Shown one piece after another: positions 1-14,602 of a stretch of 14,602 nt of DNA. Origin of the DNA: a virus (taxonomy: Duplodnaviria; Heunggongvirae; Uroviricota; Caudoviricetes). Position 1 is the first letter of the stretch. Each line of letters begins with the position of its first letter. The translations under genes and the position numbers were made by a program. The notes beneath the pieces were generated by a model. The model saw nothing but the letters and a program-made list of their open reading frames with translations. It made no database searches and had not been told where the DNA came from. The stretch is from the IMG/VR virus record IMGVR_UViG_2908567220_000007; one strand, 5' to 3'.

Positions 1-303
1 TTACTTCCTGCGTTTATCCTGCTTTGTATGCCCGTGCTGAATGCCCCGCAGTGGATCTTCTTTTTTCAGGTCGATCCCCATGTCCGTTAGTGTTTTTGTG
101 GCGGCGGTTCTTATGGCACAAATCAGGTCTCTTTCCGGTTCCCGGGTTATGGTTGCCTTCCGGATGCATGCCGTTCGTCGTTCCGTTACATACTGACGCG
201 CTTCATCACTTGCCGCCTGTTTCAGTAACTCACCCCAGCGATTAGCCGCCCGTCGCCATAAACCTTTCGCTTCCAGTTCTTCCGCTTTGTCATCATGCAC
301 CAT
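1..303 (-). CDS. PerC-family-like small transcriptional regulator (paralog of 4278..4565)
   Basis: ORF track gives 1..372; the probable start is the internal Met at 301..303 (MVHDDKAEELEAKGLWRRAANRW...), which aligns with the start of the paralog at 4278..4565 (MIRDSKAEELEAKGLYRRAAARW...RRAECIRRA) and has a GGGA motif upstream. Family assignment rests on recalled PerC/Pch motifs, not a search. Stop codon is at window position 1..3. Confidence 0.55.
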   Translation of the reverse strand: MVHDDKAEELEAKGLWRRAANRWGELLKQAASDEARQYVTERRTACIRKATITREPERDLICAIRTAATKTLTDMGIDLKKEDPLRGIQHGHTKQDKRRK

Positions 304-417
304 AAGCATAATCCCATTGATACCTGTTAAATCTGAATGGTTGGTTTCTGTTCTTTTGATAATTTTCCGCATAGCTTATTGTATGACAGTACTGTCCCAC
401 AATAAGGAGTTGCACGC

Positions 418-708
418 ATGAGAATGACCAGGCACAAAAAACAGATCCTTGAACTCTACAAACCTGAGTATCGCGATTGGGTGCGGGTGGAGGCTGGAGA
501 TCCACCTTTTGATGTTCGTGGTGTTACAGTGCTGCTCTATGGTTCCGAATATCAGCGATATCACATAGAGGCAACACGAAGGACGCTAAACGCTATGGTT
601 CGTGATAAGTTGCTGGAGCGTGTGAAAGTCCGTGAGCCACGTTTTGATGTGCGTATTGGTGGCGATGGTGCGCATTGCACGGTAATCCGCTATGGCCTGG
701 TAAGGTAA
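418..708 (+). CDS. hypothetical protein
   Basis: 96-aa ORF with a strong Shine-Dalgarno (AAGGAG, about 8 nt upstream of ATG at 418); plausible codon usage; no recognisable family. Confidence 0.55.
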   Translation: MRMTRHKKQILELYKPEYRDWVRVEAGDPPFDVRGVTVLLYGSEYQRYHIEATRRTLNAMVRDKLLERVKVREPRFDVRIGGDGAHCTVIRYGLVR

Positions 709-810
709 GCCATCGGGTAAATCAGATGATTAAATCACCAGAATGTAAATTTACATTCTGCCAGCCACCAGCTACCCTCCTCAAAATTGAGGAGCCTTTT
801 TATCAACTGG

Positions 811-1101
811 TTACCGCCGTAACCGCTCCGGCTTCTTCCACTGGTAAGTCTTTTTCTCGCTCTCCCGGTACATCTGCACGCGGCGACGGTAGGCCAATAA
901 CTCGAGTACCCTGGTGCGTATGTCGCGCATATCCACTCCGTTAAGCTCAATACCGTCACGGCGCATCACCTCAGCCACCACACGCGCATAGTTCTCAGCG
1001 ATAACGCTGTCCGGCTGCGTGGCCTCCTGTTTGCCTGCTGGTGGTCTGATCCCGGCAATCTGGCGAATCATTTTGAGCATTTCGGCTTCGGTCATTGTCA
1101 T
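811..1101 (-). CDS. hypothetical protein
   Basis: Track ORF is 811..1125; GGAGG lies 2 nt before the ATG at 1101 and 8 nt before the ATG at 1095, so the start is probably 1095 or 1101 (MTMTEAEMLKMIRQIAG...). Convergent with 418..708. No family recognised. Confidence 0.5.
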   Translation of the reverse strand: MTMTEAEMLKMIRQIAGIRPPAGKQEATQPDSVIAENYARVVAEVMRRDGIELNGVDMRDIRTRVLELLAYRRRVQMYRESEKKTYQWKKPERLRR

Positions 1102-1384
1102 GGCCTCCAGAGGATGGGGAAACAATGCCGTAATTGTGGCGACTGATAACGGGAAGGTGAAGCGCGTTTAAGCTGGTGGATGTGGTGCCATGTTTCCCAC
1201 CAATGGTGGAAAAGCCCACCAGCGCAACGCAGGACGCATAAAACCATTGCGATGACTCATGACAGGGGGATAACCACAAAAACAACGTCAGCGGCGCGAT
1301 TCTGGCTGTTCCTGTCCGGGATGTGCATACGTATTACGTACGCAGTTAATCCGGCATAACGCATGACGTTGATGAAACGCCCCG

Positions 1385-1470
1385 ATCATCGCGGGTCCTC
1401 CTGGATGGGTACCCTTACCGCGGGGCGACGGACGCGCGGAAAAAGGCTGGTTTTTGCATTTTCATGGCGG
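1385..1470 (+). other. cos-like site copy A (cosQ-like CGGGTCCTCCTGG, cosN-like GGGCGACGGACG at 1423..1434)
   Basis: Alignable to the lambda cosQ/cosN junction and to the in-window cos at 2425; a 35-bp stretch (ccttaccgcggggcgacggacgcgcggaaaaaggct) is identical to the reverse complement of 4113..4147 (copy B). Confidence 0.5.
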
Positions 1471-1864
1471 CGGCAGCATGTGTGGTAATATATTGATAAT
1501 TAAAAGTTATTTCTGTTTTCACCTGTACAATCTTTTTTCTCCCCTGTCATTAGACCAGTTCGCAATCAATTGAAATATATAAATAAATCTGATTTTCACC
1601 TGCCAGATGGAGTTGCCAGTGTCAAATGTGAGCGGAAGCGGTGATGCTTATCACTGAATCATGCCGCATCACGATACCAGACTCCCGGTACCGCTGCGTG
1701 ATAACCCACAAGGCTGGTGGCGATGCGTTATGGTCCGTGCATTGCCATTCTCCTGGCCTGGTGGCATTATCCGGCATGAACGAGCGGTTATTCTCCGTAC
1801 TCTTAATCGTTGTTCATGGTTATTTTCTTTGTGGTAGCTGACTTCTTGATGTCCTTATCCTCCT

Positions 1865-1890
1865 GCCCCGTAATCACGGGGTATTTTTTT
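1865..1890 (+). terminator. putative rho-independent terminator
   Basis: Hairpin GCCCCGT-aatc-ACGGGGT followed by ATTTTTTT on the plus strand; no convincing upstream gene, so it may end a non-coding or short-peptide transcript. Confidence 0.4.
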
Positions 1891-2424
1891 ATCTGTGATT
1901 TGCTGTTCTTCGCTGTGTTGGTATGGGGAGTTCTGGCAATGGTTCAGGCCGTCGCTTTCCTGGTACGTGATTTTTTACGTTCATTATTGTGCTGGTGGCA
2001 GCGTCACGGTGTGTCACGACATATCACCATCACGTCACGCTGATTGCGAAAGCCAGGATTAACCAGTACCGGAACGGGTAGCCCGGTGTATTGTTACCGT
2101 CCTGCCTGCTGGTGGAGTAATTGATAACGGTTATCATCAACGGGAGGGGCGGATCAAATCCCTGCAGTCCTGGCTGTCCGGGACCGCCCGCCTACCCTTG
2201 TTCACATCGCCGCAGGTTCGAAAACTTTTTTTTTGGGAAGGTGTGCACAGACTTGATAGGTAAAACCTATCAGGTAAAGCCACGTCAAACCCGCGCCATT
2301 GCTGGCATCGTTAAAAAAACTCACTCCACCAGCAGGCTAAAAAACTGTGATTTTTCCAGCTTTTGGGGCTCAAAAAGGGCTCCCTAAAAAAACTCTCACA
2401 CTGTCGGAGGGGGCGGGAAATTTT

Positions 2425-2640
2425 CACGGGTCCTTTCCGGGATCTGAAACACCGCGGGGCGGTAGACGCGCAGGATTTCACTATTTATGAAAATTTTTCA
2501 GGGGAAAAGCGTGTCGGTACTTCTCGCGCATAACTGTTTGTTTTTATTAAAATCAACCACCAGAAACATACGACATCATAAAGCCAAAAAATCCTGTTTT
2601 TTTGGCGTTTCATGTCGGAGGTGGTTTTTGATAATAAATT
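2425..2640 (+). other. lambda-like cos site (cos1): cosQ-like 2427..2440, cosN-like GGGCGGTAGACG 2457..2468, cosB-like region downstream
   Basis: ttcacgggtcctttccgggatctgaaacaccgcg|gggcggtagacg|cgcaggatttcactatttatgaaaattttt closely matches the lambda right-end/left-end junction as I recall it (TTTACGGGTCCTTTCCGGTGATCCGACAGGTTACG|GGGCGGCGACCT|CGCGGGTTTTCGCTATTTATGAAAATTTTCC). Confidence 0.7.
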
Positions 2641-2759
2641 GGTGGATTAATGTTAATAAAAATGTTTTTACTACCTGATGGAAACAACCGGAAACGTGCC
2701 GGAGAAATTACGGCAACAGAAAGGTGAGTGACAGCCGCGCAATTATTGAACAAAACTGA

Positions 2760-2952
2760 GAAAGGATCTGATAACGTCATTTTTGGCCCAAAATGCCTAC
2801 TGTCAGATCCTTTCTTTTTTTGATGATTTTACGATTAAACAATGAGTTACAGAGAAGAAGAACGGATCTGACTTTTCCCGAAAAATTTTCATAAACAGTT
2901 AAGAATTGCGCGTACCCGTACCCCCGGCGCTTAAGGTTCCGGGAAGGACCCG
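2760..2952 (-). other. second lambda-like cos site (cos4), inverted; cosQ-like 2939..2952, divergent cosN-like around 2911..2925, cosB-like region including an inverted repeat at 2760..2821
   Basis: Minus strand reads cgggtccttcccgg...gggggtacgggtacg cgcaattcttaactgtttatgaaaatttttcgggaaaagtcagatccgttcttcttc, matching lambda cosB (TTTATGAAAATTTTCCGG...CCGTTCTTCTTCG). The inverted repeat GAAAGGATCTGA...TCAGATCCTTTC resembles the lambda inverted repeat AAAGGAAACGACAG...CTGTCGTTTCCTTTC. Confidence 0.6.
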
Positions 2953-3067
2953 CCGGAGATAGCTACCATAAGGCGTAATTAAATATCCGTGGATGTGCCA
3001 CGGAACAACCAGCTGAATACAGGTCAGCGTGATGACGGGAAATAAAGAGAATGGTTGCGAATCCTCC

Positions 3068-3092
3068 ACCTGGTGAATCTCCTGCACTACCT
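3068..3092. repeat. 25-bp direct repeat (copy 1) of the 3' end of the Nu1-like gene
   Basis: cctggtgaatctcctgcactacctg is identical at 3068..3092 and 3445..3469; the second copy encodes the C-terminus QVVQEIHQGE of the 3437..3985 ORF. Confidence 0.85.
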
Positions 3093-3436
3093 GTCATTTT
3101 TGCGCAAATACCCCTGGCATTTCTAAGCATGATCAACCTGATCATTGTTCGCGGTTTTTACGTGGCAAGGCCAGTAATTACGGGGCTTACATCAATGTTT
3201 ATTCCGCCCATCTCTGCGCAAAACAACTTAACAAACCTTAACATCACAGGCGGAACCATTGCGCAAATCTGGAGGCTTACCGCACGCACCAGCCTGATAC
3301 ATTGCCAGAATGAACGAGGTGCGACACAATGTGTGTGCATGTCTTACTCATTGAACCTCAATCAAGGCGCATCCTTAGCGGTGCGCTTTTATTTTTTTGT
3401 CGTTCCCTGCTGGTGGATGTTTTCCGGTACCGCGAA

Positions 3437-3985
3437 TTATTCCCCCTGGTGAATCTCCTGCACTACCTGCGGCGTGCTGTCGTGCCAGTCGTTAGCCTGT
3501 ATCACTCTGGTAGTAATTTGCCTGCACAGGTCATCAATAATCTGCCTGACGCGGTTTACTGCGTTCTGATTGATGCCTGCATCGTGCGCCAGAATGTCGG
3601 GGAGTTTTGCCAGTTCCTCGCTTAAGATTTTCCCAAAAATAACCAACTCCCTGCGCACATCCACGGCGGGGATAAGTTCAGCCGTTTCCTGCTCGAACTT
3701 AAGGCGCTCACGCTCAGACTGGTACCAGGCTTTACGGCTTTGTGGATCCATGTCTTCGAGTGATGCGGGGGCGGGTATATTCATGAATGCGCTGATTATA
3801 TCCGTCAGTCGGTACAGCTTTAATTTTTCATGCCCTCCGGCTGGCTGAATGTCCTTTAGCCTTTTCGCTACTGTCTGGCGGCAAACTCCCGCCAGTTCTG
3901 CGAGTTGATTGATATTAAGTTTCAGGTTTTTAAGCTCCCGATCCATTCGTCCTCCGGTAGTTTTAAATGCGTATCGTGCGCTCAT
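3437..3985 (-). CDS. Nu1-like terminase small subunit / packaging-redirection protein (N-terminal HTH)
   Basis: 182-aa ORF; N-terminal NINQLAELAGVCRQTVAKRL...KLYRLTDIISAF resembles the lambda Nu1 HTH (NKKQLADIFGASIRTIQNW...VLYDSAAVIKWY). Sits about 150-190 bp downstream of cos copy B, as Nu1 does after lambda cos. An internal Met at 3944..3946 with GGAGGA upstream is an alternative start. Confidence 0.55.
   Translation of the reverse strand: MSARYAFKTTGGRMDRELKNLKLNINQLAELAGVCRQTVAKRLKDIQPAGGHEKLKLYRLTDIISAFMNIPAPASLEDMDPQSRKAWYQSERERLKFEQETAELIPAVDVRRELVIFGKILSEELAKLPDILAHDAGINQNAVNRVRQIIDDLCRQITTRVIQANDWHDSTPQVVQEIHQGE
3445..3469. repeat. 25-bp direct repeat (copy 2), overlapping the 3' end of the Nu1-like gene
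   Basis: Exact match to 3068..3092, 377 bp apart. Confidence 0.85.
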
Positions 3986-4100
3986 CTTTCAGTGGGTTAA
4001 AAGTGTTCTGTATGTTGAACAAAAAACACCCCAAATTAACATAGTAAAAATATATTTCATTTTAATTCAACATGTTGGAAAGATGATGATGACGGATGAA
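3986..4100 (-). promoter_or_regulatory. AT-rich cosB-like / promoter region upstream of the Nu1-like gene, with inverted TGTTGAA/TTCAACA sites
   Basis: atgttgaac at 4005..4013 and ttcaacatgttg at 4059..4070 form inverted copies about 50 bp apart in an AT-rich stretch, similar in layout to R elements flanking an IHF site in lambda cosB. Confidence 0.4.
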
Positions 4101-4185
4101 AATGTAAAAATTAGCCTTTTTCCGCGCGTCCGTCGCCCCGCGGTAAGGCCACCCCTCCGGAAGGACCCGTAAAAAAAGCCGGAGT
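4100..4185 (-). other. cos-like site copy B (cosQ-like 4157..4170, cosN-like 4127..4138 on the minus strand)
   Basis: Minus strand reads tttacgggtccttccggaggggtggccttaccgcg|gggcgacggacg|cgcggaaaaaggct, matching the lambda cosQ/cosN junction and near-identical to copy A at 1391..1448. Confidence 0.55.
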
Positions 4186-4194
4186 GTTCCGGCT
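4171..4194 (-). terminator. putative rho-independent terminator after the PerC-like gene
   Basis: Minus-strand hairpin AGCCGGA-acac-TCCGGCT followed by TTTTTTT (plus-strand A-run 4171..4177). Confidence 0.5.
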
Positions 4195-4277
4195 TCGTCT
4201 GTGTATGTGCGCATATGCAGGATTTTATGTTATCCGCCCACGGGAGTGATGGTCATTTTTCAGGATAATATCCGGCA

Positions 4278-4565
4278 TCACTGGTTACCGCCAGGCTGCT
4301 TCGGGTAGTTCCGCCAGACGGATTTACCCGCGTCTTCCATCCCCATCACCGCATGAGTGCGGTTTACAGCCTCTTTCAGTGCCCCGAAGTTATCCGCCAT
4401 AACGGGTGGGCGTGCTGCCCTGCGGATGCATTCCGCGCGACGCTTTGCCACCTGTTCGCGCTCCTTATCGGTGTTCACCAGCTGCATGACCTCAGCCCAC
4501 CGCGCCGCCGCTCTCCGGTACAGGCCTTTAGCCTCCAGTTCTTCCGCTTTGCTGTCACGAATCAT
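4278..4565 (-). CDS. PerC-family-like small transcriptional regulator
   Basis: 95-aa ORF MIRDSKAEELEAKGLYRRAAARWAEVM...RRAECIRRA, paralogous to 1..303; start overlaps the stop of the upstream ORF by 4 nt. Confidence 0.55.
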   Translation of the reverse strand: MIRDSKAEELEAKGLYRRAAARWAEVMQLVNTDKEREQVAKRRAECIRRAARPPVMADNFGALKEAVNRTHAVMGMEDAGKSVWRNYPKQPGGNQ

Positions 4566-5098
4566 GCGCCTGTCTTCTCCTTTGTCGCCTGACGTTTGCG
4601 CTTTTCATTCAGTGCTGCCAGCCGCGTTTCTGCCTCCTGCTGTTCCTGTGGTGTCACTTCCCCACATGGCTGGCCTTTCAGGTCGTAACGTGTGCCACCA
4701 GCCATTAAGGCGCGGTAATAGCGCGGAGACTGCGCATAAGATGCCAGCGTCGCACGTAATGCCCCCGGCCCGAATGTCAGCCCCCTGGCGGCGATATCCT
4801 GTATCAGGTCGTCGAATATCCCCACCTTAAGCGGCTTCGGTGCTTTATGGCTGAATAAGTCAGGCCACATCTCAGTGAGGCGGTTAACGCGTCGGCGGTT
4901 TTTGCGCTGCCTTTTGGTCATATGCTGACACGGTGTCGCCCCTGCGGTCTTCTGTTTGCGGCTCTGCTGTGCGTTCTGATTATCGGGTATCACTTTATGC
5001 GCCGATGTGGTTTTATCCTGCTCTTGTGCCGCCTGCGTCGTTTTCTGCGGCGTGCCGTAAATGCCTTTCGGTTTTCGGTTAATGGTCAGCTTTGTCAT
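4562..5098 (-). CDS. ProQ/FinO-domain protein (putative RNA chaperone)
   Basis: 178 aa; PLKVGIFDDLIQDIAARG...LRATLASYAQSPRYYRAL...GTRYDLKGQPCGEVTPQEQQEAE resembles the ProQ N-terminal FinO domain (PLKIGIFQDL...LRSALRLYTSSWRYL...[23 protein letters not shown], recalled). Basic, low-complexity N-terminus. SD AGGGGA upstream. Confidence 0.7.
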   Translation of the reverse strand: MTKLTINRKPKGIYGTPQKTTQAAQEQDKTTSAHKVIPDNQNAQQSRKQKTAGATPCQHMTKRQRKNRRRVNRLTEMWPDLFSHKAPKPLKVGIFDDLIQDIAARGLTFGPGALRATLASYAQSPRYYRALMAGGTRYDLKGQPCGEVTPQEQQEAETRLAALNEKRKRQATKEKTGA

Positions 5099-5134
5099 GC
5101 CTTCCCCTGTAATTACGCTGTTCGCTGTTGTGAA

Positions 5135-5560
5135 TTAAAACGGTATGTTATCCCCGTACGGGTCATCGTGCTGGCTTGTCTGTTGTTTTGCCCTGTTCAG
5201 TGCGTCAGTGGCCTGGCCCTGTTGACCTTTTTTGCCGCCCGGTCGCGCCGTTCGCGCACTGATTACGCTGTCTGCAATAACCTGCCAGCCCTGCCGCGTT
5301 TCCCCGTTCTGGCCTGTCCACTGGCTTACCTGCATGTTACCCGCCACGCTCACCAGTTCGCCTTTCTGGTGCCTGGCCAGTGCGTCGGCCTGTCTGCCAA
5401 ACGCCAGGACGGATAACCACATCGTCGCCGTTCCGTCATCTGCCTGGCTGCACGGCAGGGGAACCGCCATACTCGCCATCGCCATTTGTGTCCCTTTGCT
5501 GGTGGTCTTTAACTGCGGGTCAGCCACCAGCCGCCCGTAAGCCGCTATCTGTGCTGTCAT
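5135..5560 (-). CDS. ssb: single-stranded DNA-binding protein (SSB-like)
   Basis: 141 aa; OB-fold-like N-terminal region (AAYGRLVADPQLKTT...GTATMWLSVLAFGRQADALARHQKGELVSVAGNMQVSQWTGQNGETRQGWQVIADSV), Gly/Gln-rich linker and a C-terminal DDPYGDNIPF resembling the canonical SSB DDDIPF tip. ATGA overlap with the upstream ORF. Confidence 0.7.
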   Translation of the reverse strand: MTAQIAAYGRLVADPQLKTTSKGTQMAMASMAVPLPCSQADDGTATMWLSVLAFGRQADALARHQKGELVSVAGNMQVSQWTGQNGETRQGWQVIADSVISARTARPGGKKGQQGQATDALNRAKQQTSQHDDPYGDNIPF

Positions 5561-6330
5561 GCTGTATGTTCTCCGTTTTTTACTGGCCCTGTCATCAGTG
5601 CGCGCTTAAGCTGCTTGTGTGAGATATTAAACAGGCAGTTCATTCTTCCCGTTCGCTTCATCCGATAACCCGATGCGACCATTGCGGCGATTAATGCGCC
5701 GTTTGTGATGTATGTCGGCTCTGTTGGTTGCCCGTCGCCCTTAGCTCTTCTCTGATTCACACGCTCAACACAATGTTTCAGGCCGTAGGATGTCGGATTT
5801 TTTCCAGGGAATGATGCAATCTTACAGTCGGTTAGGTTGTTCTCCCTTATCCAGCGTAAACAGCTCATCGCCTCCGCCATGAAGGGCGCATAATCAAGCG
5901 GGTGCTGCCATGCCTTATCACGGCTGTACAGTTCAAGTCCGTCGCGGTTAAAAAACGGGTAAGCGGCAAGAATTACCGTTACTGCGTGTTTAATTTCCAC
6001 CTCATCATTCTGTCGCTCTTTTTCTGTTCCGTACGGATAATAATCAGAACCGCCCGGATTGATGCACTGTTTACCACTGAAAGGCCATTGCTTCGCCATT
6101 TCGGGGGTTGAGTGATTACCGTCGCTCCGTTCTCGTTGTGCCTCTGTCCACTGGCTGGCGTATTCCGTAAAACTCACCGCCTTACTCTGTCGCATCCAGT
6201 GCGCAATCATGACCAGCGTTCTGGTAAGGCTCTGTATATCTCCGTGCTTCTCACACTGTCCCGCAAAGGCCTTGAGCGCTTCGCGTTCTTTGTAGTTCAT
6301 ACCCTGACGGGTCATATTTTCTTTATTCAT
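5557..6330 (-). CDS. hypothetical protein, replication-module associated
   Basis: 257-aa ORF immediately downstream of the iteron array and translationally coupled to the SSB-like gene; no family recognised by eye. Confidence 0.55.
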   Translation of the reverse strand: MNKENMTRQGMNYKEREALKAFAGQCEKHGDIQSLTRTLVMIAHWMRQSKAVSFTEYASQWTEAQRERSDGNHSTPEMAKQWPFSGKQCINPGGSDYYPYGTEKERQNDEVEIKHAVTVILAAYPFFNRDGLELYSRDKAWQHPLDYAPFMAEAMSCLRWIRENNLTDCKIASFPGKNPTSYGLKHCVERVNQRRAKGDGQPTEPTYITNGALIAAMVASGYRMKRTGRMNCLFNISHKQLKRALMTGPVKNGEHTA

Positions 6331-6511
6331 TCCCCACTACTCCCCGCTTTTGTTCCCCACTTTTTAAATTTCCCACTTGCTTCCCACCTCGTTTTTTGGG
6401 TGAGTCTAATACTTTGTTTTTCATTGTATTTTTTACTCCCCACTTTTTTGGATGTATACAGGCCGGAAAGTGGGGAATAGCGTTTCAATTTTGTTAAATT
6501 CCCCGCTATCC
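6331..6511. repeat. iteron-like repeat array (putative replication origin), left part
   Basis: Eight copies of TCCCCACT-like heptamers (CCCCACT, CCCCGCT, TCCCACT, TCCCACC) at about 6332, 6342, 6355, 6371, 6382, 6438, 6501 plus an inverted copy GTGGGGA at 6470, around an AT-rich spacer (6391..6435). Confidence 0.5.
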
Positions 6512-6596
6512 GTAACCGTCTCATTTAAACCGTCTTTCGCCTCCCTTTCCTGTTTCCGATACTAATGTCCATTTTCGCAGTAAAGGGACATTTAAG

Positions 6597-7247
6597 ATGA
6601 ATGCACGAAAAGCGGTACTGGCAGACAATCCGGAATTGATCCTGCGTGTGCTACAGCTGAGATTTGACGAGTCACTGTCGTACCCGCGCATTTCTGCGCA
6701 GACCGGTGTCAGCAAAACCGCCATTTTTTCTCTGGTGAGGCGATTTCACCAGGTATTCACTGACTGGCCTCTTTCCGGTGAATATTCCTGCGGGCAACTG
6801 GCCCGGGCTCTTTTCCCGGGGCGATACCCTTCAGCCCCGACCGTGACTCAGCCTGTGAAAGCAGAGAAACCCCGCCGGAACCGATTTTCACCGGAGTTTA
6901 AATGGAGACTGGTTCAGCAAACTCTTTTACCCGGTGCCTGTGTCGCACAAATAGCTCGAGAGAATGGAATTAACGATAACCTGCTCTTTAACTGGCGGCA
7001 TCTCTGGCGTAACGGTGGCCTGCAACCGCCCGGCGAACATGAAACATCGCTACTTCCCGTGACGTTAACTCCGGAGCCGGATAATAAAATCCCGGCACCA
7101 GTGCAGATACCTGAACAGATAAATACACTGCCAGACAGTCTGTGCTGCGAGCTGGTTCTGCCGGCCGGAACTCTCAGGCTGAAAGGTGAACTGACACCGG
7201 CGTTATTACAGACACTTATCCGCGAAATGAAAGGGAGCAGCCACTGA
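6597..7247 (+). CDS. tnpA: IS66-family accessory protein (orf1)
   Basis: 216-aa ORF, first in the IS; AAGGGA Shine-Dalgarno; ATGA overlap with the next ORF, as is typical for IS66 elements. Confidence 0.75.
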   Translation: MNARKAVLADNPELILRVLQLRFDESLSYPRISAQTGVSKTAIFSLVRRFHQVFTDWPLSGEYSCGQLARALFPGRYPSAPTVTQPVKAEKPRRNRFSPEFKWRLVQQTLLPGACVAQIARENGINDNLLFNWRHLWRNGGLQPPGEHETSLLPVTLTPEPDNKIPAPVQIPEQINTLPDSLCCELVLPAGTLRLKGELTPALLQTLIREMKGSSH

Positions 7248-7594
7248 TGATATCTCTCCCTGCCGGTTCGCGTATCTGGCTGGTTGCCGGTATCACCGAT
7301 ATGCGAAATGGCTTTAACGGCCTGGCCTCAAAAGTTCAGAACGTCCTGAAGGATGACCCGTTCTCCGGGCATCTGTTCATCTTCCGCGGACGCCGGGGTG
7401 ACCAGATAAAAGTGCTGTGGGCTGACAGTGACGGACTGTGCCTCTTCACCAAACGCCTGGAGCGGGGCCGCTTCGTCTGGCCGGTCACCCGCGATGGAAA
7501 GGTTCACCTTACTCCGGCTCAGTTGTCCATGCTTCTCGAAGGCATCGACTGGAAGCACCCGAAACGAACGGAACGCGCTGGCATCCGCATATAA
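7247..7594 (+). CDS. tnpB: IS66-family protein TnpB (orf2)
   Basis: 115-aa ORF MISLPAGSRIWLVAGITDMRNGFNGLASKVQ...LFIFRGRRGDQIKVLWAD, characteristic of IS66 orf2. Confidence 0.85.
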   Translation: MISLPAGSRIWLVAGITDMRNGFNGLASKVQNVLKDDPFSGHLFIFRGRRGDQIKVLWADSDGLCLFTKRLERGRFVWPVTRDGKVHLTPAQLSMLLEGIDWKHPKRTERAGIRI

Positions 7595-7613
7595 CCCGTT
7601 GTAAAGTGAGGAT

Positions 7614-9185
7614 ATGGACACCTCACTTGCTCATGAGAATGCCCGCCTGCGGGCACTGTTGCAGACGCAACAGGACACCATCCGCCAGATGGCGAAATAC
7701 AACCGCCTGCTCTCACAGCGGGTGGCGGCTTATGCTTCCGAAATCAACCGGCTGAAGGCGCTGGTTGCGAAACTGCAGCGCATGCAGTTCGGTAAAAGCT
7801 CAGAAAAACTTCGCGCTAAAACCGAACGGCAGATACAGGAAGCCCAGGAGCGAATCAGCGCACTTCAGGAAGAAATGGCGGAAACGCTGGATGAGCAATA
7901 TGACCCGGTACTGCCATCCGCCCTGCGCCAGTCTTCAGCCCGTAAGCCGTTACCGGCCTCACTTCCCCGTGAAACCCGGGTCATCCGGCCGGAAGAGGAA
8001 TGCTGCCCGGCCTGTGGTGGTGACCTCAGTCCTCTGGGGTGTGATGTGTCAGAGCAACTGGAGCTTATCAGCAGCGCTTTTAAGGTTATCGAAACACAAC
8101 GTCCGAAACTGGCCTGTTGCCGGTGCGACCATATCGTGCAGGCACCAGTACCTTCAAAACCCATTGCACGCAGTTATGCCGGAGCGGGGCTTCTGGCTCA
8201 TATCGTCACCGGGAAGTATGCAGACCATCTGCCGTTATACCGCCAGTCAGAAATATACCTTCGTCAGGGCGTGGAACTGAGCCGCGCCACGCTGGGGCGC
8301 TGGACCGGTGCCGTTGCTGAACTGCTGGAGCCGCTGTATGACGTGCTGCGCCAGTATGTGCTGATGCCCGGTAAAGTCCATGCGGATGATATCCCCGTTC
8401 CGGTCCAGGAGCCGGGCAGTGGTAAAACAAGAACTGCCCGGCTGTGGGTCTATGTCCGTGATGACCGTAACGCCGGTTCACAGATGCCCCCGGCGGTCTG
8501 GTTCGCGTACAGCCCGGACCGGAAAGGTATCCATCCACAGAATCACCTGGCCGGTTACAGCGGTGTGCTTCAGGCAGATGCTTACGGTGGTTACCGGGCG
8601 TTATACGAATCCGGCAGAATAACGGAAGCCGCGTGTATGGCCCATGCCCGGAGAAAAATCCACGATGTGCATGCAAGAGTGCCAACCGACATCACCACGG
8701 AAGCCCTGCAGCGTATCGGTGAACTGTATGTCATCGAGGCAGAAGTCCGGGGATGTTCAGCAGAACAGCGTCTGGCAGCAAGAAAAGCCAGAGCGGCTCC
8801 ACTGATGCAGTCACTGTATGACTGGATACAGGAACAGATGAAAACACTGTCGCGTCACTCGGATACGGCAAAAGCGTTCGCATACCTGCTGAAACAGTGG
8901 GAGGCCCTGAACGTGTACTGCAGTAATGGCTGGGTGGAAATCGACAACAACATCGCAGAGAACGCCTTACGGGGAGTGGCCGTAGGCCGGAAAAACTGGC
9001 TCTTCGCGGGTTCCGACAGCGGTGGCGAACATGCGGCGGTGTTGTACTCGCTGATCGGCACATGCCGTCTGAACAATGTGGAACCAGAAAAATGGCTGCG
9101 TTACGTCATTGAGCATATCCAGGATTGGCCGGCAAACCGGGTACGCGATCTGTTGCCCTGGAAAGTTGATCTGACCTCTCAGTAA
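7614..9185 (+). CDS. tnpC: IS66-family transposase (orf3)
   Basis: 523-aa ORF with N-terminal coiled-coil/leucine-zipper-like region, CCPACGG...CCRC zinc-finger-like motif and a long catalytic core, as in IS66 transposases; GAGG Shine-Dalgarno. Confidence 0.9.
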
Positions 9186-9215
9186 ATATCAATACGGTTC
9201 TGGCGAGCCGCTTAC

Positions 9216-9243
9216 CGCTATCCCCACTTTTATCCCCCACTTT
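9216..9243. repeat. iteron-like repeat array, right part (separated from the left part by the IS66 insertion)
   Basis: cgctatccccacttttatcccccactttt carries two further CCCCACT copies immediately after the right target duplication and just 3' of the helicase stop at 9244. Confidence 0.5.
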
Positions 9244-10650
9244 TTACAGTGGATGCACGTCATTGCCGTCGATAGTGATCACGCCGTCTTTTTCCAGCTT
9301 GTACAGCCAGCGCCGGAAGTGCTTCATCTCATACCCCAGCTTTTTCATATCGTCACGTAGCAGGGCGATAGTGCACGGCTCTTTGTGTGCTGTCCGTGTT
9401 CTTATGCACTGCCATAATGCGGCGTGATTCTCCGTCTTGTTCCCGGCCTCCTCGATGCGTTCCAGTTCAGCAGGGGCGCGGGGAACGTCAATCACCACCA
9501 TGGACACAATCTCTTCGCCATCTGTATCGGTGAACACCTCCACGCTTTTAAGGTCGTATGCGCTCTCTTTTGGCTCCTCTGCGTCCTTCATCTTCGTACA
9601 TGCCGCCACCAGTGCTGTAACGTCTGAATTTTCCCGGCCGATTCGGTACTCTGCATCAAGCGCGGCACGGAATGCGCTGGAACCACGCGCCCCCTTTGTT
9701 TCATCCTTGCCGGAATGGTGAACCACCAGCACCGTGGCCCCTGTAGCCTGCTTTATCGCGTCACACCCCTGGATAAATGCGCCCATATCACGGGAATCAT
9801 TTTCATCATTCCCACCAAAGCAACGGGCCAGCGTGTCGATCACAATCAGCCGCACATTTTCGCCCGTTCTGCTCTTAACAAGTCCGGCAGTCCTGATAAC
9901 CTGCTCCACATAGTCAGGCGATGCGGGAAAGACAGGCGCGTTAACGATGCACAAATCTGTAACCTCTTTTCCGTATGTTATCTCCCACGCCTTAACGCGG
10001 CGTTTTACGCCCATACTGCCTTCGCCAGCGATATAGATAACCGCGCCCTTACTTACCCTGCGGCCTCCCCATGCCATACCTGTGGCAACATGGCACGACC
10101 AGGAAATAGCCAGGAACGATTTATAAGAACCGCTGGCCCCGTAGGTGCTGCATAATGACTCAGCCGGAATAAGCCCCTTAATTACGTAGCTTTGCTGCGC
10201 GTCGAATCCCTCAGAACCCCATGAGATGGGAAGTGTGATTTTTCGCTTTCCACCATTCATGACCAGACTTTCCCCGCGTTCCCAGGTTTCTTTAAGCCGC
10301 GGTAGTTGCTCGCTCCAGTCCTCCAGCAGTTCGAAATTCTCTGAAAGTAACCGTGCTTCCTGGACACCTGCGATCGCCAGTTTGGTGGCAATGGTCAGCA
10401 TCTGCATATCGTCCAGGTTTCCGGCGCGTATGACCTTTGCTCTGTATCGTCCTTCATCAACAATCTGTAAATTGTCCAGTTCGCTTAACTGATAACGGCC
10501 CAGGTAAACCGGAGGGATGGGATCGCCTGCTTTTTTGGCCTGTGCAATCATGTAATGTTCTGCAAAGGAGTGAGCATTATCACCCGCAAAAATAACCGCC
10601 TCAGTGTGTTTATCTTTCGGTAACAGTTTTACGTTCGGTGCCAGTTTCAT
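9244..10650 (-). CDS. RepA-like P-loop replicative helicase (RecA-fold ATPase)
   Basis: 468 aa; P-loop-like GASGSYKS, Walker B-like RLIVIDTL, and VLVVHHSGK motif reminiscent of RSF1010 RepA-type helicases; C-terminal winged-helix-like tail; AGAGGT Shine-Dalgarno; followed directly by the iteron array. Confidence 0.75.
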   Translation of the reverse strand: MKLAPNVKLLPKDKHTEAVIFAGDNAHSFAEHYMIAQAKKAGDPIPPVYLGRYQLSELDNLQIVDEGRYRAKVIRAGNLDDMQMLTIATKLAIAGVQEARLLSENFELLEDWSEQLPRLKETWERGESLVMNGGKRKITLPISWGSEGFDAQQSYVIKGLIPAESLCSTYGASGSYKSFLAISWSCHVATGMAWGGRRVSKGAVIYIAGEGSMGVKRRVKAWEITYGKEVTDLCIVNAPVFPASPDYVEQVIRTAGLVKSRTGENVRLIVIDTLARCFGGNDENDSRDMGAFIQGCDAIKQATGATVLVVHHSGKDETKGARGSSAFRAALDAEYRIGRENSDVTALVAACTKMKDAEEPKESAYDLKSVEVFTDTDGEEIVSMVVIDVPRAPAELERIEEAGNKTENHAALWQCIRTRTAHKEPCTIALLRDDMKKLGYEMKHFRRWLYKLEKDGVITIDGNDVHPL

Positions 10651-10946
10651 TTTTTACCTCTGGATGCGCTGAGCATGCTTTTTATTTTCTTAATATTTTC
10701 CCGTGCTTTTTCCCTGCTGGTGGGCTTACTGCGTGTTGCGTTCTGTACCAGAGAAAAATCACGCCGGAACTGATAAACAGGCATCACGCAGTCATAGCCG
10801 TACCCATCACGGCGGTAAGTAACGCACCGTCCCGCCACGCTTTTAATCGTTACCGTGCCGCCGTAGTTATCCCGGAAAATATCGCCGGGGTGGATTTCAG
10901 GCCGAGCGGGGCCGCTGGCAGTAAAGCCAGAATTTTTCTGTTTCAT
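10647..10946 (-). CDS. hypothetical protein
   Basis: 99-aa ORF whose stop overlaps the helicase start by 4 nt (translational coupling); no family recognised. Confidence 0.5.
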   Translation of the reverse strand: MKQKNSGFTASGPARPEIHPGDIFRDNYGGTVTIKSVAGRCVTYRRDGYGYDCVMPVYQFRRDFSLVQNATRSKPTSREKARENIKKIKSMLSASRGKK

Positions 10947-10951
10947 GGTTT

Positions 10952-11644: not shown

Positions 11645-11840
11645 GATGCACCCCCTGACGAATACGGGCGGCGAATACCATCACGCAGCCAGCCGGGGAT
11701 TGCTGGCGTGCTTCCTGTTCGCTGGTGGCCTCAATGGTAATCACGCGCGGTTGTGCCGTGCTCAGGGCGATAAAACGCCAGATGTATTTATTCAGGTTGT
11801 GCGAGTCCCGCCCTTGCGGGTGTCTGGTATAATTTCTCAT
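11634..11840 (-). CDS. hypothetical small protein, first gene of the leftward operon
   Basis: 68-aa ORF from the ATG at 11838..11840 with GAGGTA Shine-Dalgarno; it is the 3' portion of the 328-aa track ORF, the rest of which looks like antisense read-through. Confidence 0.4.
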   Translation of the reverse strand: MRNYTRHPQGRDSHNLNKYIWRFIALSTAQPRVITIEATSEQEARQQSPAGCVMVFAARIRQGVHHVQ

Positions 11841-11879
11841 AGCTACCTCGATACTCTTTCTATCGTTGGTGGTTAGACG

Positions 11880-12036
11880 CCCTGCATGTGTGCCACCACT
11901 GCGGGGCGTTGCTGTATATACACCACAATTATTGGTGTGCATACAGATTAAATTTAAGTGTGCTACAGTGTCAAGTGTTTTATTAACACACCTTTTGGTG
12001 TAATGTGTACACACCTCAAAATAACCGGACATCCTA
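11880..12036. promoter_or_regulatory. divergent promoter/operator region with clustered ACACC/GGTGT inverted repeats
   Basis: TATATACACCA-7-TGGTGTGCATA at 11915..11943; ACACC-TTTT-GGTGT at 11988..12001; GGTGT-9-ACACC with palindrome GTGTACAC at 12005..12012; three AGTGT direct repeats at 11958..11978. Confidence 0.45.
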
Positions 12037-12342
12037 ATGGCAACAGGAAACATCAACAGCAGATCGCAAATGAAAAATATCCGCTTCCCCCATGATGTAA
12101 TCGAGGAAATGGAAAATTCGAAAACGGAAGGGGAAACAATAGCCGCTTTCGTGATTACAGCTGTTCGCGGGGAGATCGCCCGCCGCCAAGCTGAAGGAAG
12201 CGGAGAAAATCCCCTGGTTTCTTCGCTCGATGCACTGGCGCAGGTGGAAAAAATTGGAGTCAAAGCTGCCGAGGAGATCGGGCAACTAGTCGCCGTCGCG
12301 CGTGAAGAACTCCAGCGCCGCAAGGCCAAAGAGCAGGAATAG
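12037..12342 (+). CDS. putative small DNA-binding regulator (possible ribbon-helix-helix; coiled-coil C-terminus)
   Basis: 101-aa ORF divergent from the leftward operon; KNIRFPHDVIEEMEN looks like a strand-helix ribbon-helix-helix start; weak Shine-Dalgarno, and an alternative start at the Met at 12070. Confidence 0.45.
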   Translation: MATGNINSRSQMKNIRFPHDVIEEMENSKTEGETIAAFVITAVRGEIARRQAEGSGENPLVSSLDALAQVEKIGVKAAEEIGQLVAVAREELQRRKAKEQE

Positions 12343-12445: not shown

Positions 12446-12474
12446 GGCCACCGTAGCGGGTGGCCTTTGTTTTG
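12446..12474 (+). terminator. putative rho-independent terminator
   Basis: GGCCACC-gtagcg-GGTGGCC hairpin followed by TTTGTTTTG, about 100 nt after the 12342 stop. Confidence 0.5.
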
Positions 12475-12624
12475 CCTGTTATCCGGCAATTGTGGCGCTT
12501 CGCCACACGGTTGATATAATTCCCCTGCACTGATCCATTTTTTTCGCAGCAGGTTAATTGTTCGCAAGGGCGCTCCGGCAACGGGGCGCTTTTTGTTATG
12601 TTCATCGCGTTACGCCTCACACCA

Positions 12625-12831
12625 TTACGCAGCCGTTCCGCGCGCTTCTTCCTCGCGCTCTTTCAGCCAGGCCAGCACTTCATCTTCATACCAGCCAACA
12701 CGGCGCAGACCGATTTTGAAGCCTTTCGGGAATTTTCCGGCGTTGATCATGTCCTGTAGCGAACTGTCTGCCTTGATGCGCAGAATATTTTTTACTTCCT
12801 GACGGGTAAGTATTTTTCTGATTGTTTCCAC
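12625..12831 (-). CDS. alpA: AlpA-family phage transcriptional regulator (Vis/excisionase-like HTH)
   Basis: 68 aa; LTRQEVKNILRIKADSSLQDMINAGKFPKGFKIGLRRVGWYEDEVLAWL matches the AlpA pattern (KFP...G.R.VGW...E...W). Confidence 0.85.
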   Translation of the reverse strand: METIRKILTRQEVKNILRIKADSSLQDMINAGKFPKGFKIGLRRVGWYEDEVLAWLKEREEEARGTAA

Positions 12832-12899
12832 TATGTTTTACCTCGTTAATCCGGCGTATTCCGGTGATAAATACGGTAAAACAGGGCAGGGCGGGAAAA

Positions 12900-12935
12900 A
12901 CAGTACCCACCGTTTTAAAACGGTACCCACTGTTT
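12900..12935. promoter_or_regulatory. perfect 16-bp palindrome ACCGTTTTAAAACGGT flanked by direct repeats GTACCCAC, upstream of alpA
   Basis: Palindrome at 12909..12924; GTACCCAC at 12903..12910 and 12923..12930, 20 bp apart. Confidence 0.4.
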
Positions 12936-12963
12936 TTTATCTCATTGATTACGCTTTTCTTTC

Positions 12964-12997
12964 TGCAAAAAAATAGCGACCGCAAGGGGCCGCTATT
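12964..12997 (-). terminator. putative rho-independent terminator after the int-proximal small ORF
   Basis: Minus-strand hairpin AATAGCGGCC-ccttgc-GGTCGCTATT followed by a T-run (plus-strand A-run 12967..12973). Confidence 0.5.
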
Positions 12998-13001
12998 GTG
13001 A

Positions 13002-13244
13002 TTACCGTTTCCACTTCTTAGGTCGCCCACCGCATTTAAGGCTGGTGGGCCTCAGCACCTTGTCGATGCTTTCAGCCAGATTTTTCGATGCGCCACGCGA
13101 GCGTAAAAAACTGACTACCTCGTGTTTTGTGGGGGCTGTTGATTTGTCTTCCGGATCGTATGTTGACCAGAATTCACGATTTGCCATTAACGCCAGTTGC
13201 AGCCCTTCGCCGCAAGCAGGGGATACCTTTTCATTGAAAAACAC
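13002..13244 (-). CDS. hypothetical protein
   Basis: 80-aa ORF starting at GTG with AAGGAG 8 nt upstream; between int and alpA; followed by a terminator. An internal ATG (MANREFW...) is an alternative start. Confidence 0.5.
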   Translation of the reverse strand: MFFNEKVSPACGEGLQLALMANREFWSTYDPEDKSTAPTKHEVVSFLRSRGASKNLAESIDKVLRPTSLKCGGRPKKWKR

Positions 13245-13360
13245 CTGGATAGCTCCTTGAATTTCATGATTTGGGTGACTCCTCTCTGTATTGGGTGGGT
13301 TGTGGCGATTATACGATGGTTTAGCATGGTTTGCATTGCTTTTACTGGTTTTTTGTACAG

Positions 13361-14602
13361 TTACACGGCACGGATACCCCTTTTACCACTGGCTATGGTC
13401 ACTCCGGTAGCTGCGGCCTCTACAAATTCCCCCCACCAGCGCATAAGCACCACGCGCTTTTCCAGGTAGTTACTTCGGTTATATGCTCGCCTTACCTCGT
13501 TTGTGTCCACGTGTGCGAGTGCGGCCTCGATTACGTCCGGCTCGAATCCTTCCTCGTTCGCTGCTGTACTGAATATGGCGCGTAATCCGTGAGACACCAG
13601 CACACCAGCGTAACCCATCCGGCGCAATGCGGCGTTAGCTGTCTGGCTGCTCATTGGCAGCATTGGATTTTTAAGGCTGGGAAAAACGTGTTCCCTGTGT
13701 GCGCTGATTGGCTTCATGGTTTCCAGTACAGCCATAGCCTGACCGCAAAGGGGGATCACGTGGTCACGGCGCATCTTCATGCGTCCGGCTGGAATCGTCC
13801 AGGTTTCGGCATCGAGATCTATTTCTTCCCAGCGTGCGGCGGCTGCTTCGGCTGGGCGTGCTACGGTCAGCAGTTGCCACTCAATCAGCAATCTGGTTTG
13901 CCGTTCTATGCTGGCGACCGATAAATCGTGCATTAGCTGCGGTAGCTGTTCCGGTCGGATGGTTGGCATGTGCTTTTTGGTGGGTGAGGGGAATGCCTTG
14001 CGGACGTTCGCGGCGGTGTTGATGTCAATCAGCCCACTGTTGGCAGCAAAATCCATCACTTCATTGATGCGTTGTAAAACGCGTTTCAGGGTTTCCAGGT
14101 TGCCGCGTGCTTTAATGGGTGTGAGTATCTCAACAAAGCGGCGAGCTGTGAGGGTATCTATTGGCGTGTTTCCGATGTACGGGAATACGTATTTTTCCAG
14201 GGATCGCCAGATATCCTTAATCGTGTTGTAAGCCAGATTCTGGCCTTTTTTCATCTCGTACCAGTCCGAGGCAACTTTTTCGAACGTGTTGCCCTTTTTC
14301 CGACTCTCTGCTTCACGTTTCCGGCGTTCGTGGTCCTGTGGGTCAACTCCCTTCGCTATGAGTGACCTGTATTCATTCCGTCGTTCTCTGGCATCGGACA
14401 GGGAAACATCATTCAGCGATCCGAGGCTGATGATAGTCCGTTTTTTATCTGCCGGGCGGTAGTACGTAAAACGCCAGATTTTTGATCCGGAGGGTTTCAC
14501 CAGAAGAAATAATCCTCCACCATCCTGCAGGGTGTATTCCTTTTCCCCTGGTCGTGCGTTTTTGATCTCCGTAATAGTTAGTGGGGTGGTTTTTCGTGCC
14601 AT
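13361..14602 (-). CDS. int: P4-type tyrosine integrase (site-specific recombinase, phage integrase family)
   Basis: 413 aa; N-terminal arm-binding-like region (MARKTTPLTITEIKNARPGEKEYTLQDGGGLFLLVKPSGSKIWRFTYY); C-terminal catalytic region with HGLR box and RRAYNRSNY tyrosine region. Start codon is the last three bases of the window. Confidence 0.95.
   Translation of the reverse strand: MARKTTPLTITEIKNARPGEKEYTLQDGGGLFLLVKPSGSKIWRFTYYRPADKKRTIISLGSLNDVSLSDARERRNEYRSLIAKGVDPQDHERRKREAESRKKGNTFEKVASDWYEMKKGQNLAYNTIKDIWRSLEKYVFPYIGNTPIDTLTARRFVEILTPIKARGNLETLKRVLQRINEVMDFAANSGLIDINTAANVRKAFPSPTKKHMPTIRPEQLPQLMHDLSVASIERQTRLLIEWQLLTVARPAEAAAARWEEIDLDAETWTIPAGRMKMRRDHVIPLCGQAMAVLETMKPISAHREHVFPSLKNPMLPMSSQTANAALRRMGYAGVLVSHGLRAIFSTAANEEGFEPDVIEAALAHVDTNEVRRAYNRSNYLEKRVVLMRWWGEFVEAAATGVTIASGKRGIRAV

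Follow-up and report, generated by a model that had tools for sequence, protein, structure and literature searches.

A probable phage-inducible chromosomal island of Escherichia coli with four predicted cos sites, its own DUF1441-type small terminase gene, and an insertion sequence in its origin

The IMG/VR record IMGVR_UViG_2908567220_000007, a stretch of 14,602 nucleotides (nt) classified under the Caudoviricetes and analysed here at its full length (the window), raises the question of what kind of element it holds and how such an element could be packaged. A preliminary description, made from the sequence without database searches, had seen in it a satellite resembling a phage-inducible chromosomal island (PICI) that depends on a lambdoid helper phage. 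Our analysis supports this view. The window is best explained as most of a PICI of the Escherichia coli EcCI lineage, and for this explanation taken whole, with the damage to packaging end and origin included, we estimate a probability of about 0.8. Elements of this kind are already known from E. coli; the packaging module is an undescribed variant, and the origin of the present copy is damaged.

The window is 100% identical to the source contig CP024978.1 (locus L009). The island genes are read on the minus strand from the right end, with a YlcI/YnfO-family gene on the opposite strand. Family matches (Table 1) gave the order integrase gene (int), alpA, a YlcI/Icd control region, small open reading frames (ORFs), a DUF4222 gene, rep, an iteron-bearing origin, an ORF of 257 amino acids (aa), and genes for a single-strand DNA-binding protein (SSB), a ProQ/FinO-domain protein, and a PerC-family activator, followed by the packaging end. 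The latter consists of a cos site with a small terminase gene (terS, product TerS), three more cos sites, an rgdR-like gene, and a second PerC gene; after the DUF1441-family terS, about 2.3 kb are without convincing genes. These matches bear out the order proposed earlier (int, alpA, a regulatory switch, a replication module with origin, and a cos module), the switch corresponding to the divergent YlcI/Icd control region. No credible ORF of the window matched capsid, portal, tail, lysis, or large-terminase (TerL) families in Pfam or PHROG, and a tblastn search of the window with the TerL of phage Tritos gave a best hit of E=0.78, in agreement with the claimed absence of capsid, tail, and TerL genes. 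Nor does the island belong to the capsid-forming PICIs (cf-PICIs): their own capsid, portal, protease, head-tail connectors, and TerL were all without a match (Pfam, PHROG, tblastn). In its organisation (int-AlpA-replication module-origin), its lack of structural and lysis genes, its iteron origin 3' of rep, and its size, the island agrees with the PICI definition of 2018 (PMC6092414); it measures 13.4 kb between the att cores without its insertion sequence (IS) and 16.1 kb with it, and PICIs are given as about 12-15 kb.

The chromosomal context points in the same direction. In the source contig, the island sits in the 3' end of proL, the gene for tRNA-Pro(GGG), between yejM and yejO. The integrase gene starts 210 bp from the tRNA gene, which lies outside the window; a tRNA search of the window found none, no att site was found in it, and the sole Rfam match for the window and the whole island was the flanking tRNA. 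The flanks carry chromosomal genes, yejM/lapC on one side and a yejO autotransporter pseudogene on the other, rather than the structural genes of a full-size prophage, and the tRNA-Pro gene and att repeats are both present just outside the window. The att repeat, at the tRNA 3' end, is imperfect and 17 bp long (attL, CTCTCGTGCCGACCAAA; attR, CTCTCGTG-CGACCAAA). The island continues to attR, 1.28 kb beyond window position 1, through a segment with no convincing ORF and no RNA family. The site is empty in K-12, and comparison with the empty K-12 site puts the junctions in the proL 3' end. The yejM-luxR/aidA interval is a listed PICI att site (PMC6092414 Table S1), and the same site holds the published PICI EcCIATCC25922. 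At attR, the displaced tRNA-Pro 3' fragment is damaged, by a 1-nt deletion in the source (L009 17606-17621) and by a 3-nt deletion in the related locus L012 (~17610-17625). Damage of this kind is reported as typical of PICIs (PMC10111431), and attR here fits that pattern. With some crossover points, proL could be left defective by excision.

Six further genomes carry the same island, with 99.9% identity over the left 6.5 kb. In L008 the same island (99.98% over window 1-6511, integrase 96%) occupies a non-tRNA secondary site (~4090-4110, ~17600-17615) that shares only CTCGTG with the core, and since the same island stands there at a different site, the element appears to have moved recently. 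A further repeat, TTTTTAGCTACACGTT(T/A)AGCTATACG, lies near both island ends (L009 1638-1665 and 17519-17545) and likewise in L012, L007, and L008; its TTTTTAGCTACACGTT copies fall outside the window, ~90 bp past 14602 and ~1.19 kb past position 1, and more copies of TAGCTA(C/T)AC are found upstream of int. The 16-mer TTTTTAGCTACACGTT was considered as the att core and rejected, because the comparison with the empty K-12 site places it inside the island; this location makes it a probable integrase arm site. An analogous repeat, TAGTTATACG, which corresponds to TAGCTACACG of the island, is listed as 'att site core' for PICIs at the yejM site, including EcCIATCC25922 (PMC6092414 Table S1); unlike that listing, the K-12 junction comparison puts the crossover in the tRNA-Pro 3' end.

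The closest proven counterpart is EcCICFT073 (E. coli CFT073, ycfD-phoQ; PMC6092414, PMC6739421), the model for Gram-negative cos-type PICIs and experimentally established as a PICI. It has the same gene order as the island and 12 homologous, collinear proteins with identities of 45-95% (Icd, 95%; SSB, 69-78%; h4, 71%; last gene, 71%), and both elements have convergent cos sites around a packaging-specificity gene. EcCICFT073 differs in its att site, in its capsid and decoration homologs, in RppA, in its two cos sites with the lambda cosN GGGCGGCGACCT, and in a primase-type replication protein (Pri-Rep) where the island has a RepA-helicase type, the N-terminus being shared (46% identity over the N-terminal 131 aa of Rep). 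The island, for its part, lacks capsid genes and Rpp and encodes a DUF1441 TerS, a ProQ/FinO protein, and two PerC proteins; its cos sites number four, and their cosN sequences are not those of phages. The published islands EcCIATCC25922, EcCIED1a.1, and SbCISb227 (PMC6092414 Table S1) share the yejM-proL site beside tRNA-Pro, and the integrase of the island is 83% identical to that of EcCIATCC25922 versus 25% to that of EcCICFT073. Like the island, EcCIATCC25922 has a terS-type gene between convergent cos sites; unlike it, EcCIATCC25922 encodes a primase, capsid and decoration proteins, and a TerS related to Nu1 (49% to the L001 gene), and it lacks the DUF1441 TerS, ProQ, and second PerC. EcCICFT073 and EcCIATCC25922 follow a simpler plan, with one convergent lambda-cosN pair around rppA or a Nu1-type terS. 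EcCIATCC25922 has a third cos-like site (L259 9831-9900), between ssb and the capsid gene, which resembles the DUF1441 type and reads GGGCGGGAGGCG followed by CGGAAAAAAGCG; it is not discussed in the papers cited here.

The identity of the island is ordinary, and it is the cos array and its cosN sequences that deserve attention. The window contains four copies of the composite cosQ-to-cosN motif GGGTCCT-N20-34-ACGCGC, where shuffled sequences give an expectation of 0.01. The four sites, designated A to D (Table 1), have their first cosN base at 1423 (+), 2457 (+), 2922 (-), and 4138 (-), respectively, and form two nested inverted pairs. Each aligns with phage cos from the cosQ box through cosN into cosB, and each with a different phage type. 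As predicted from sequence, they have the cosQ box, the 12-bp cosN at fixed spacing, and the cosB R elements at lambda-like distances that define lambda-type cos. cos A and cos D share a 74-nt inverted repeat, 89% matched. In cos B, R3 (~2506-2521) and R1 (~2606-2621) are conserved. cos C has R3 at 2868-2859, an inverted R2 at 2815-2806, and R1 at 2768-2759, that is, at +55, +108 (inverted), and +155 versus +55, +109, and +157 in lambda; the R core is GATCC(G/T)TTCT versus TTTCC(G/T)TTCT in lambda. The cosB side of cos D is 73% identical to that of PhiR40_1, and its cos-terS layout is that of mEp460-type phages.

The array resembles the lambdoid phages lambda, phage 21, mEp460/PhiR40_1, and cdtI/Tritos in the cosQ box, the position of the 12-base cosN, the R3/I1/R2/R1 spacing, and a terS ~190 bp downstream of cosN. 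In contrast to these phages, no TerL follows any of the four island cos sites, the cosN 12-mers differ from those of all phage-linked sites sampled, and 1-3 bases separate the phage versions from the R cores in cos C and from the candidate 8-mers in cos D. These 8-mers, ATGTTGAA (+66) and TTCAACAT (+120), are inverted and correspond to ATGTCGAA (+98) and TTCGACAT (+120) in PhiR40_1 (L006), with a one-base difference; they are candidates for elements bound by TerS. The helix-turn-helix (HTH) of TerS differs in parallel, reading VCRQTVAKRL in the island and LHRQTVVARL in PhiR40_1. About 1.25 kb within the array (1657-2420 and 2953-3436) is without an annotated or family-matched gene; some gene callers predict a hydrophobic protein of 77 aa (1810-2043, +) and one of 133 aa (3051-3452, +), neither with a PHROG match.

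The nested arrangement of four cos sites is also found in L001, L002, L008, L012, L020, L021, and L022, which include islands with a CFT073-type integrase or with other replication genes. The "reshuffled packaging end" of the preliminary description is thus present, but it is a family trait, kept in seven compared relatives, and at least 80% of the four-cos region was found in only 19 of 5426 complete E. coli genomes. In L020 (7761-12559), the inner segment of cos B, Nu1-type terS, and cos C is inverted relative to the other relatives, such as L012 (12194-14909). Recombination between the inverted cosQ-cosN repeats would give such an inversion, and the packaging end may thus flip.

cos A and cos D have the same cosN 12-mer, and cos B and cos C each have one of their own; the island consensus is GG(G/T)(C/A)(G/C)(A/G)N(G/A)G(A/T)ACG, and the phage sequences are GGGCGGCGACCT (lambda, phage 21) and GGGCGGGAGCGT (Tritos, PhiR40_1). 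Since the A/D sequence recurs in islands with differing cosB flanks, the divergence of cosN is not random decay. In IMG/VR, the exact 21-mer around the A/D cosN occurs only in contigs of <=13.2 kb. Among the IMG/VR matches listed, ~129 sites with a right flank of the D/A or B type are followed by TerL, all with a phage-type cosN, and the cosN variants ending in GACG (9 sites) stand only where no TerL follows; cosN 12-mers ending in GACG or TACG were, among these matches, confined to contigs of satellite size without TerL (L019-L022, L147, and L166). A scan with the 15-mer GGGGCGACGGACGCG, in which a cosQ box was required upstream, yielded, likewise among the matches listed, satellite-size contigs and one non-matching contig. 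In GenBank phages, no match to cos D exceeded 84%. These unusual cosN sequences persist in divergent relatives and seem to be under selection. The divergent cosN of "cos4", read earlier as a sign of decay, therefore does not count as one: cosN is conserved across the family, and "cos4", if numbered by coordinate, is the site beside the intact TerS, with a cosN identical to that of the first site. A bolder proposal would be a conserved, invertible four-cos cassette whose cosB elements imitate four helper lineages, with one or two full-length TerS proteins and a "private" cosN that has no counterpart in the phages sampled; we regard it as tentative and, in this full form, rather doubtful.

The intact terS gene encodes a protein of 169-182 aa, with a probable start at 3946 (169 aa). 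Its PF07278 score is 121 bits (cut-off, 35.1), and alignment with the TerS proteins of PhiR40_1, mEp460, and Tritos places it in the DUF1441/phrog_141 small-terminase family. Along the whole protein, its identity with the TerS of PhiR40_1 and mEp460, whose genes precede TerL, is 58-63%, and the island gene lies directly downstream of cos D at a phage-like distance. Against Nu1 (1J9I and 6HN7 chain B), a PDB sequence search gave no match and hhalign a probability of 19%, over 31 HTH columns only. No ORF matches RppC (6HLK) or RppA, and the DUF1441 TerS has no similarity to either. Searches of the PDB for Rpp homologs with the DUF1441 protein and the 104-aa and 96-aa ORFs returned nothing meaningful, the SAKe match being a designed repeat protein with sub-threshold domains. 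The intact gene was hence rejected as a Nu1 or Rpp gene, and the earlier label "Nu1-like" is apt for the function of the module, not for the sequence of this gene.

A Nu1-type gene did once stand in the array. Comparison with relatives shows that a 505-bp deletion produced the remnant after cos B, and an intact 194-aa ortholog lies between cos B and cos C in L001, L020, L021, and L022. This ortholog matches lambda TerS (6hn7_B) with E=1e-37 and has the phage 21 recognition helix VDPRTIERWQ. The Nu1-deleted form is present at two chromosomal sites, and so the loss did not stop the spread of the island.

In L012, which is free of the IS, the 200 bp after the rep stop contain, in order, two AAAAGTGGGG iterons, an inverted copy, another iteron, an AT-rich stretch of ~45 bp, and 4-5 degenerate iterons. 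PICI origins are described as having this plan, in which an AT-rich region lies between two sets of iterons, 3' of rep (PMC6092414). In the window, an IS66-family element has inserted after the second iteron, and the two rep-proximal iterons now lie 2.7 kb from the AT-rich region and the other iterons. The assignment follows from three ORFs (6597-7247, 7247-7594, and 7614-9185; tnpA, tnpB, and a DDE tnpC), from ends of the GTAA(G/C)CG type (GTAACCGTCTC... and ...GAGCCGCTTAC, that is, GTAACCG... and ...CGCTTAC), and from an 8-bp target duplication, CGCTATCC, at 6504-6511 and 9216-9223. The IS66 insertion noticed earlier is therefore real, and it can now be seen to split the origin iterons. It is absent from the otherwise identical islands L007, L008, and L010-L012; the sibling L012 is 99.96% identical without it. 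Because the IS splits the iterons and lengthens the unit from 13.4 to 16.1 kb (20%), autonomous replication of this copy is probably impaired.

The most serious rival disputes the functional state of the element, not its identity. It holds that this copy is a dead relic, which the IS in the origin and the lineage-wide loss of the Nu1-type terS have left non-replicating and effectively immobile, so that the island is now a mere chromosomal carrier of its PerC, RgdR-like, and ProQ genes. The separation of the iterons favours this reading, as do the presence of the IS in the source genome only, among seven island copies compared, and the larger unit, a trimer of which (48.3 kb) would exceed the 42-46 kb genomes of the DUF1441-type candidate helpers. 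On the other side, the intact 8-bp duplication and the 100% conserved flanks indicate that the insertion is recent; the copy retains intact int, alpA, rep, and terS genes and four intact cos sites; the Nu1 deletion is evidently tolerated, the deleted form being found at two sites; and an excised island that does not replicate might still be packaged passively, or the island in situ. We consider the odds for the relic slightly less than even.

For the island as a working PICI, we infer the following cycle from its anatomy and from EcCICFT073 (PMC6092414, PMC6739421). A replicating lambdoid helper would switch on AlpA, upon which the island would excise by Int at the proL core and replicate from the iteron origin with its RepA-type helicase and SSB. 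The helper TerL would then cut the concatemers at cos and fill helper capsids. Most likely, the DUF1441 TerS binds the cosB of cos D and recruits the helper TerL, and cos A, B, and C probably serve as entry or termination points, in either direction, for helpers whose TerS recognises them. Three IS-free monomers of 13.4 kb would give 40.2 kb, which fits a helper head of 42-48 kb. Several findings weigh against this picture. The C-terminal third of the TerS, its expected TerL-binding part, is the region least conserved relative to phage TerS. The island cosN 12-mers differ at 5-6 positions from those of the cosB-matching phages, and a helper TerL might cut them poorly. Finally, the copy, and in part its lineage, is decaying, as is evident from an origin interrupted by the IS, a Nu1 homolog lost by deletion, and a second terS that is truncated; to this extent the partial decay claimed earlier stands, the divergent cosN no longer being part of the argument.

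The step assigned to TerS has a rival of its own. The sole cos-type packaging mechanism worked out for Gram-negative PICIs is that of Rpp, which retargets the helper TerS, and the DUF1441 protein could act in the same way: it would form heterodimers with the helper TerS, block helper packaging, and retarget it to the island cosB, with the helper TerS bringing in TerL. In EcCICFT073, Rpp occupies the same cos-gene-cos context and carries a TerS-like DNA-binding domain (PMC6739421); moreover, the 58-63% homology of the island TerS to the TerS of candidate helpers favours mixed oligomers, and its C-terminal region is divergent. However, Rpp proteins have 139-154 aa and lack the C-terminal 30-40 residues (PMC9026076), whereas the island protein is full-length and aligns to the end of phage TerS, which makes an Rpp-like role less likely, and no sequence similarity connects it with RppA or RppC. 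The cos sites also differ. Rpp-type PICIs have a cosQ and cosN that are almost the same as the helper's and a cosB without R repeats (PMC6739421, PMC9026076). In the island, the cosN 12-mers differ from those of lambda, phage 21, Tritos, and PhiR40; repeats of the R3/R2/R1 type are present in cos C and cos B; and the slot by the cos sites holds a full-length TerS or a deleted Nu1 homolog and no Rpp. We regard the Rpp-like reading as unlikely.

The element may instead be a decayed lambdoid prophage remnant, not a satellite, given that its cos sites and its terS genes derive from lambdoid phages and several gene remnants are present. This is highly improbable: not a trace was seen of genes for head, tail, lysis, TerL, or lambdoid immunity or replication, the compact 13.4-kb plan is repeated with hardly any change in many genomes and at two sites, and the island is collinear with a proven PICI and occupies a published PICI site. 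The cohesive ends of P2 and P4 have 19 bases. A P4-like satellite, which the P4-family integrase, the AlpA/Vis-like regulator, and the Icd-like gene might bring to mind, is hardly credible, as no ORF matches the Psu, Delta, Sid, or P4 alpha-type primase families, the cos sites are of the lambda type with a cosQ box and a 12-base cosN, and P4-like satellites are separated from PICIs in the literature (PMC6092414).

The proposed logic, a satellite TerS working with a helper TerL, would be that of the pac-type Staphylococcus aureus islands SaPI1 and SaPIbov1, which have their own TerS; the cos-type SaPIbov5, without TerS, carries helper-like cos sites (PMC6092414). The likeness drawn here is one of logic. 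The SaPIs belong to hosts of a different phylum and have an Stl repressor in place of the AlpA activator, and the present island combines both features in a lambda-type cos system. A terS gene in a PICI is not new in itself, since SatelliteFinder lists the small terminase among PICI core components. In the PICI literature examined, we found no description of a DUF1441 TerS in a cos PICI, of a four-site cos array, or of a satellite-specific cosN, and a literature search for the term "DUF1441" returned unrelated phage papers only.

PICIs interfere with phages and disseminate virulence regulators, represented in this island by two PerC homologs and an RgdR-like gene. The lineage of this island appears to solve packaging in a way different from Rpp, with a full-length TerS of its own and a cos array matching several helper lineages, which, if true, would widen the known host-range strategies of satellites. 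If the cassette works, a single satellite could exploit helpers of several types, with packaging possible in either direction, and its cohesive ends could not anneal with helper genomes. It would also follow that TerS sets the position at which the helper TerL cuts and that the sequence of cosN matters little, a point left open in the lambda packaging literature (PMC9026076). The satellite-only cosN sequences offer a natural experiment on the sequence specificity that the large-terminase nuclease needs.

Table 1. Features of the window, by coordinate
Feature	Coordinates	Strand	Evidence and remarks
PerC-family activator, copy 2	1..372	-	PF06069 E=7.5e-23; annotated 1-303 in relatives
96-aa ORF, opposite strand	418..708	+	Annotated, conserved in relatives; no meaningful family or structure match
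Probable rgdR homolog, 94 aa from 1095 (94-104 aa)	811..1125	-	71% to last gene of EcCICFT073
cos A: cosQ 1393-1399, cosN GGGCGACGGACG 1423-1434, Tritos/cdtI-type cosB	1393..1618	+	92% to Tritos on cosB side
Truncated DUF1441 terS, cdtI/Tritos type, first 12 codons	1619..1656	+	After cos A
cos B: cosQ 2428-2434, cosN GGGCGGTAGACG 2457-2468, phage-21-type cosB	2428..2645	+	79% to annotated phage 21 cosB side
Nu1/phage-21-type terS remnant	2646..2731	+	Start mutated to ATT, codons ~5-175 deleted, last 19 codons kept
cos C: cosQ 2951-2945, cosN GGTACGGGTACG 2922-2911, lambda-architecture cosB, no terS after	2759..2952	-	
Duplicated terS 3' end, last 10 codons, 29-nt direct repeat (3065-3093 vs 3441-3469)	3064..3093	-	Recombination scar
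Small terminase, DUF1441 family, intact	3437..3985	-	PF07278 E=4.7e-35; phrog_141 'terminase small subunit' E=2e-55
cos D: cosQ 4168-4162, cosN GGGCGACGGACG 4138-4127, cosB up to terS start	3986..4169	-	
PerC-family activator, copy 1	4278..4565	-	PF06069 E=7.5e-36; 65% to EcCICFT073 PerC
ProQ/FinO-domain protein, accessory RNA-chaperone homolog	4562..5098	-	PF04352 E=7e-25; absent from EcCICFT073
SSB	5135..5560	-	PF00436; 69-78% to EcCICFT073 SSB
257-aa accessory protein, variable slot between origin and ssb	5557..6330	-	Absent from L001, L002, EcCICFT073
Rest of origin: inverted iteron, one AAAAGTGGGG iteron, ~45-bp AT-rich stretch, second iteron cluster	6331..6511	-	6504-6511 = other copy of target duplication
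IS66-family element, 2704 bp	6512..9215	+	PF01527, PF05717, PF03050, PF13817, PF13005, PF13007
Rep-proximal origin part, two AAAAGTGGGG iterons	9216..9246	-	9216-9223 = one target-duplication copy
RepA-like AAA_25 helicase, 468 aa	9244..10650	-	PF13481 E=2e-43; phrog_2850, phrog_906, phrog_3228
DUF4222 protein immediately upstream of rep	10647..10946	-	PF13973 E=1e-24; 64% to EcCICFT073 counterpart
Three small conserved PICI ORFs, 86/77/77 aa	10952..11644	-	45-71% to EcCICFT073 h2, h3, h4; PHROGs without function
Icd-like small protein	11646..11840	-	95% to EcCICFT073 Icd-like protein (tblastn); phrog_6196
Divergent control region, 196 bp, YlcI gene (+) vs Icd-led operon (-)	11841..12036	.	Sequence; putative promoters
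YlcI/YnfO-family gene, convergent with alpA	12037..12342	+	NF041551 E=8e-18; phrog_6522
AlpA-family regulator	12625..12831	-	PF05930 E=4.5e-8; phrog_66
Repeat AAAAACAGTGGGTACCGTTTTAAAACGGTGGGTACTGTTTTT just upstream of alpA	12896..12937	.	Inverted repeat
80-aa ORF between int and alpA	13002..13244	-	Conserved in relatives, no family match
P4-type tyrosine integrase, complete, 413 aa	13361..14602	-	PF00589, PF22022, PF13356; NF007246 560 bits

The remaining genes are consistent with a PICI of this lineage. The integrase is a complete P4-type enzyme, as had been claimed (413 aa; PF00589, PF13356, and NF007246), with arm-binding, SAM-like, and catalytic domains. A terminator-like hairpin (12997-12972) follows the 80-aa ORF, and the AAAAACAGTGGGTACCGTTTTAAAACGGTGGGTACTGTTTTT repeat is a candidate regulator-binding site. 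By analogy with its role in EcCICFT073 (PMC6092414), AlpA would be the activator of the island cycle. EcCICFT073 has a YlcI/YnfO homolog in the matching position, and the divergent YlcI/Icd arrangement is the same in EcCICFT073 and EcCIATCC25922; a promoter consensus scan of the control region gave 1 site versus 2.0 expected.

Among the accessory genes, the 257-aa protein belongs to a small family confined to the Enterobacterales, with 27 homologs, none of them named. It matched nothing in Pfam, PADLOC, or NCBIfam. Its AlphaFold2 model (mean pLDDT, 78.6) gave, in Foldseek searches of the PDB and BFVD, no PDB fold match and one unnamed viral match, from which no function could be assigned. It may be accessory or anti-phage cargo; PADLOC, run on ten island proteins, found no defence system. 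The two PerC copies are 42% identical to each other, and the ProQ/PerC cargo may affect regulation of the host or of the LEE (enterocyte effacement) locus. rgdR is listed for all E. coli PICIs (PMC6092414 Table S1), and the gene at 811-1125 is, from its sequence, probably the rgdR homolog of this island.

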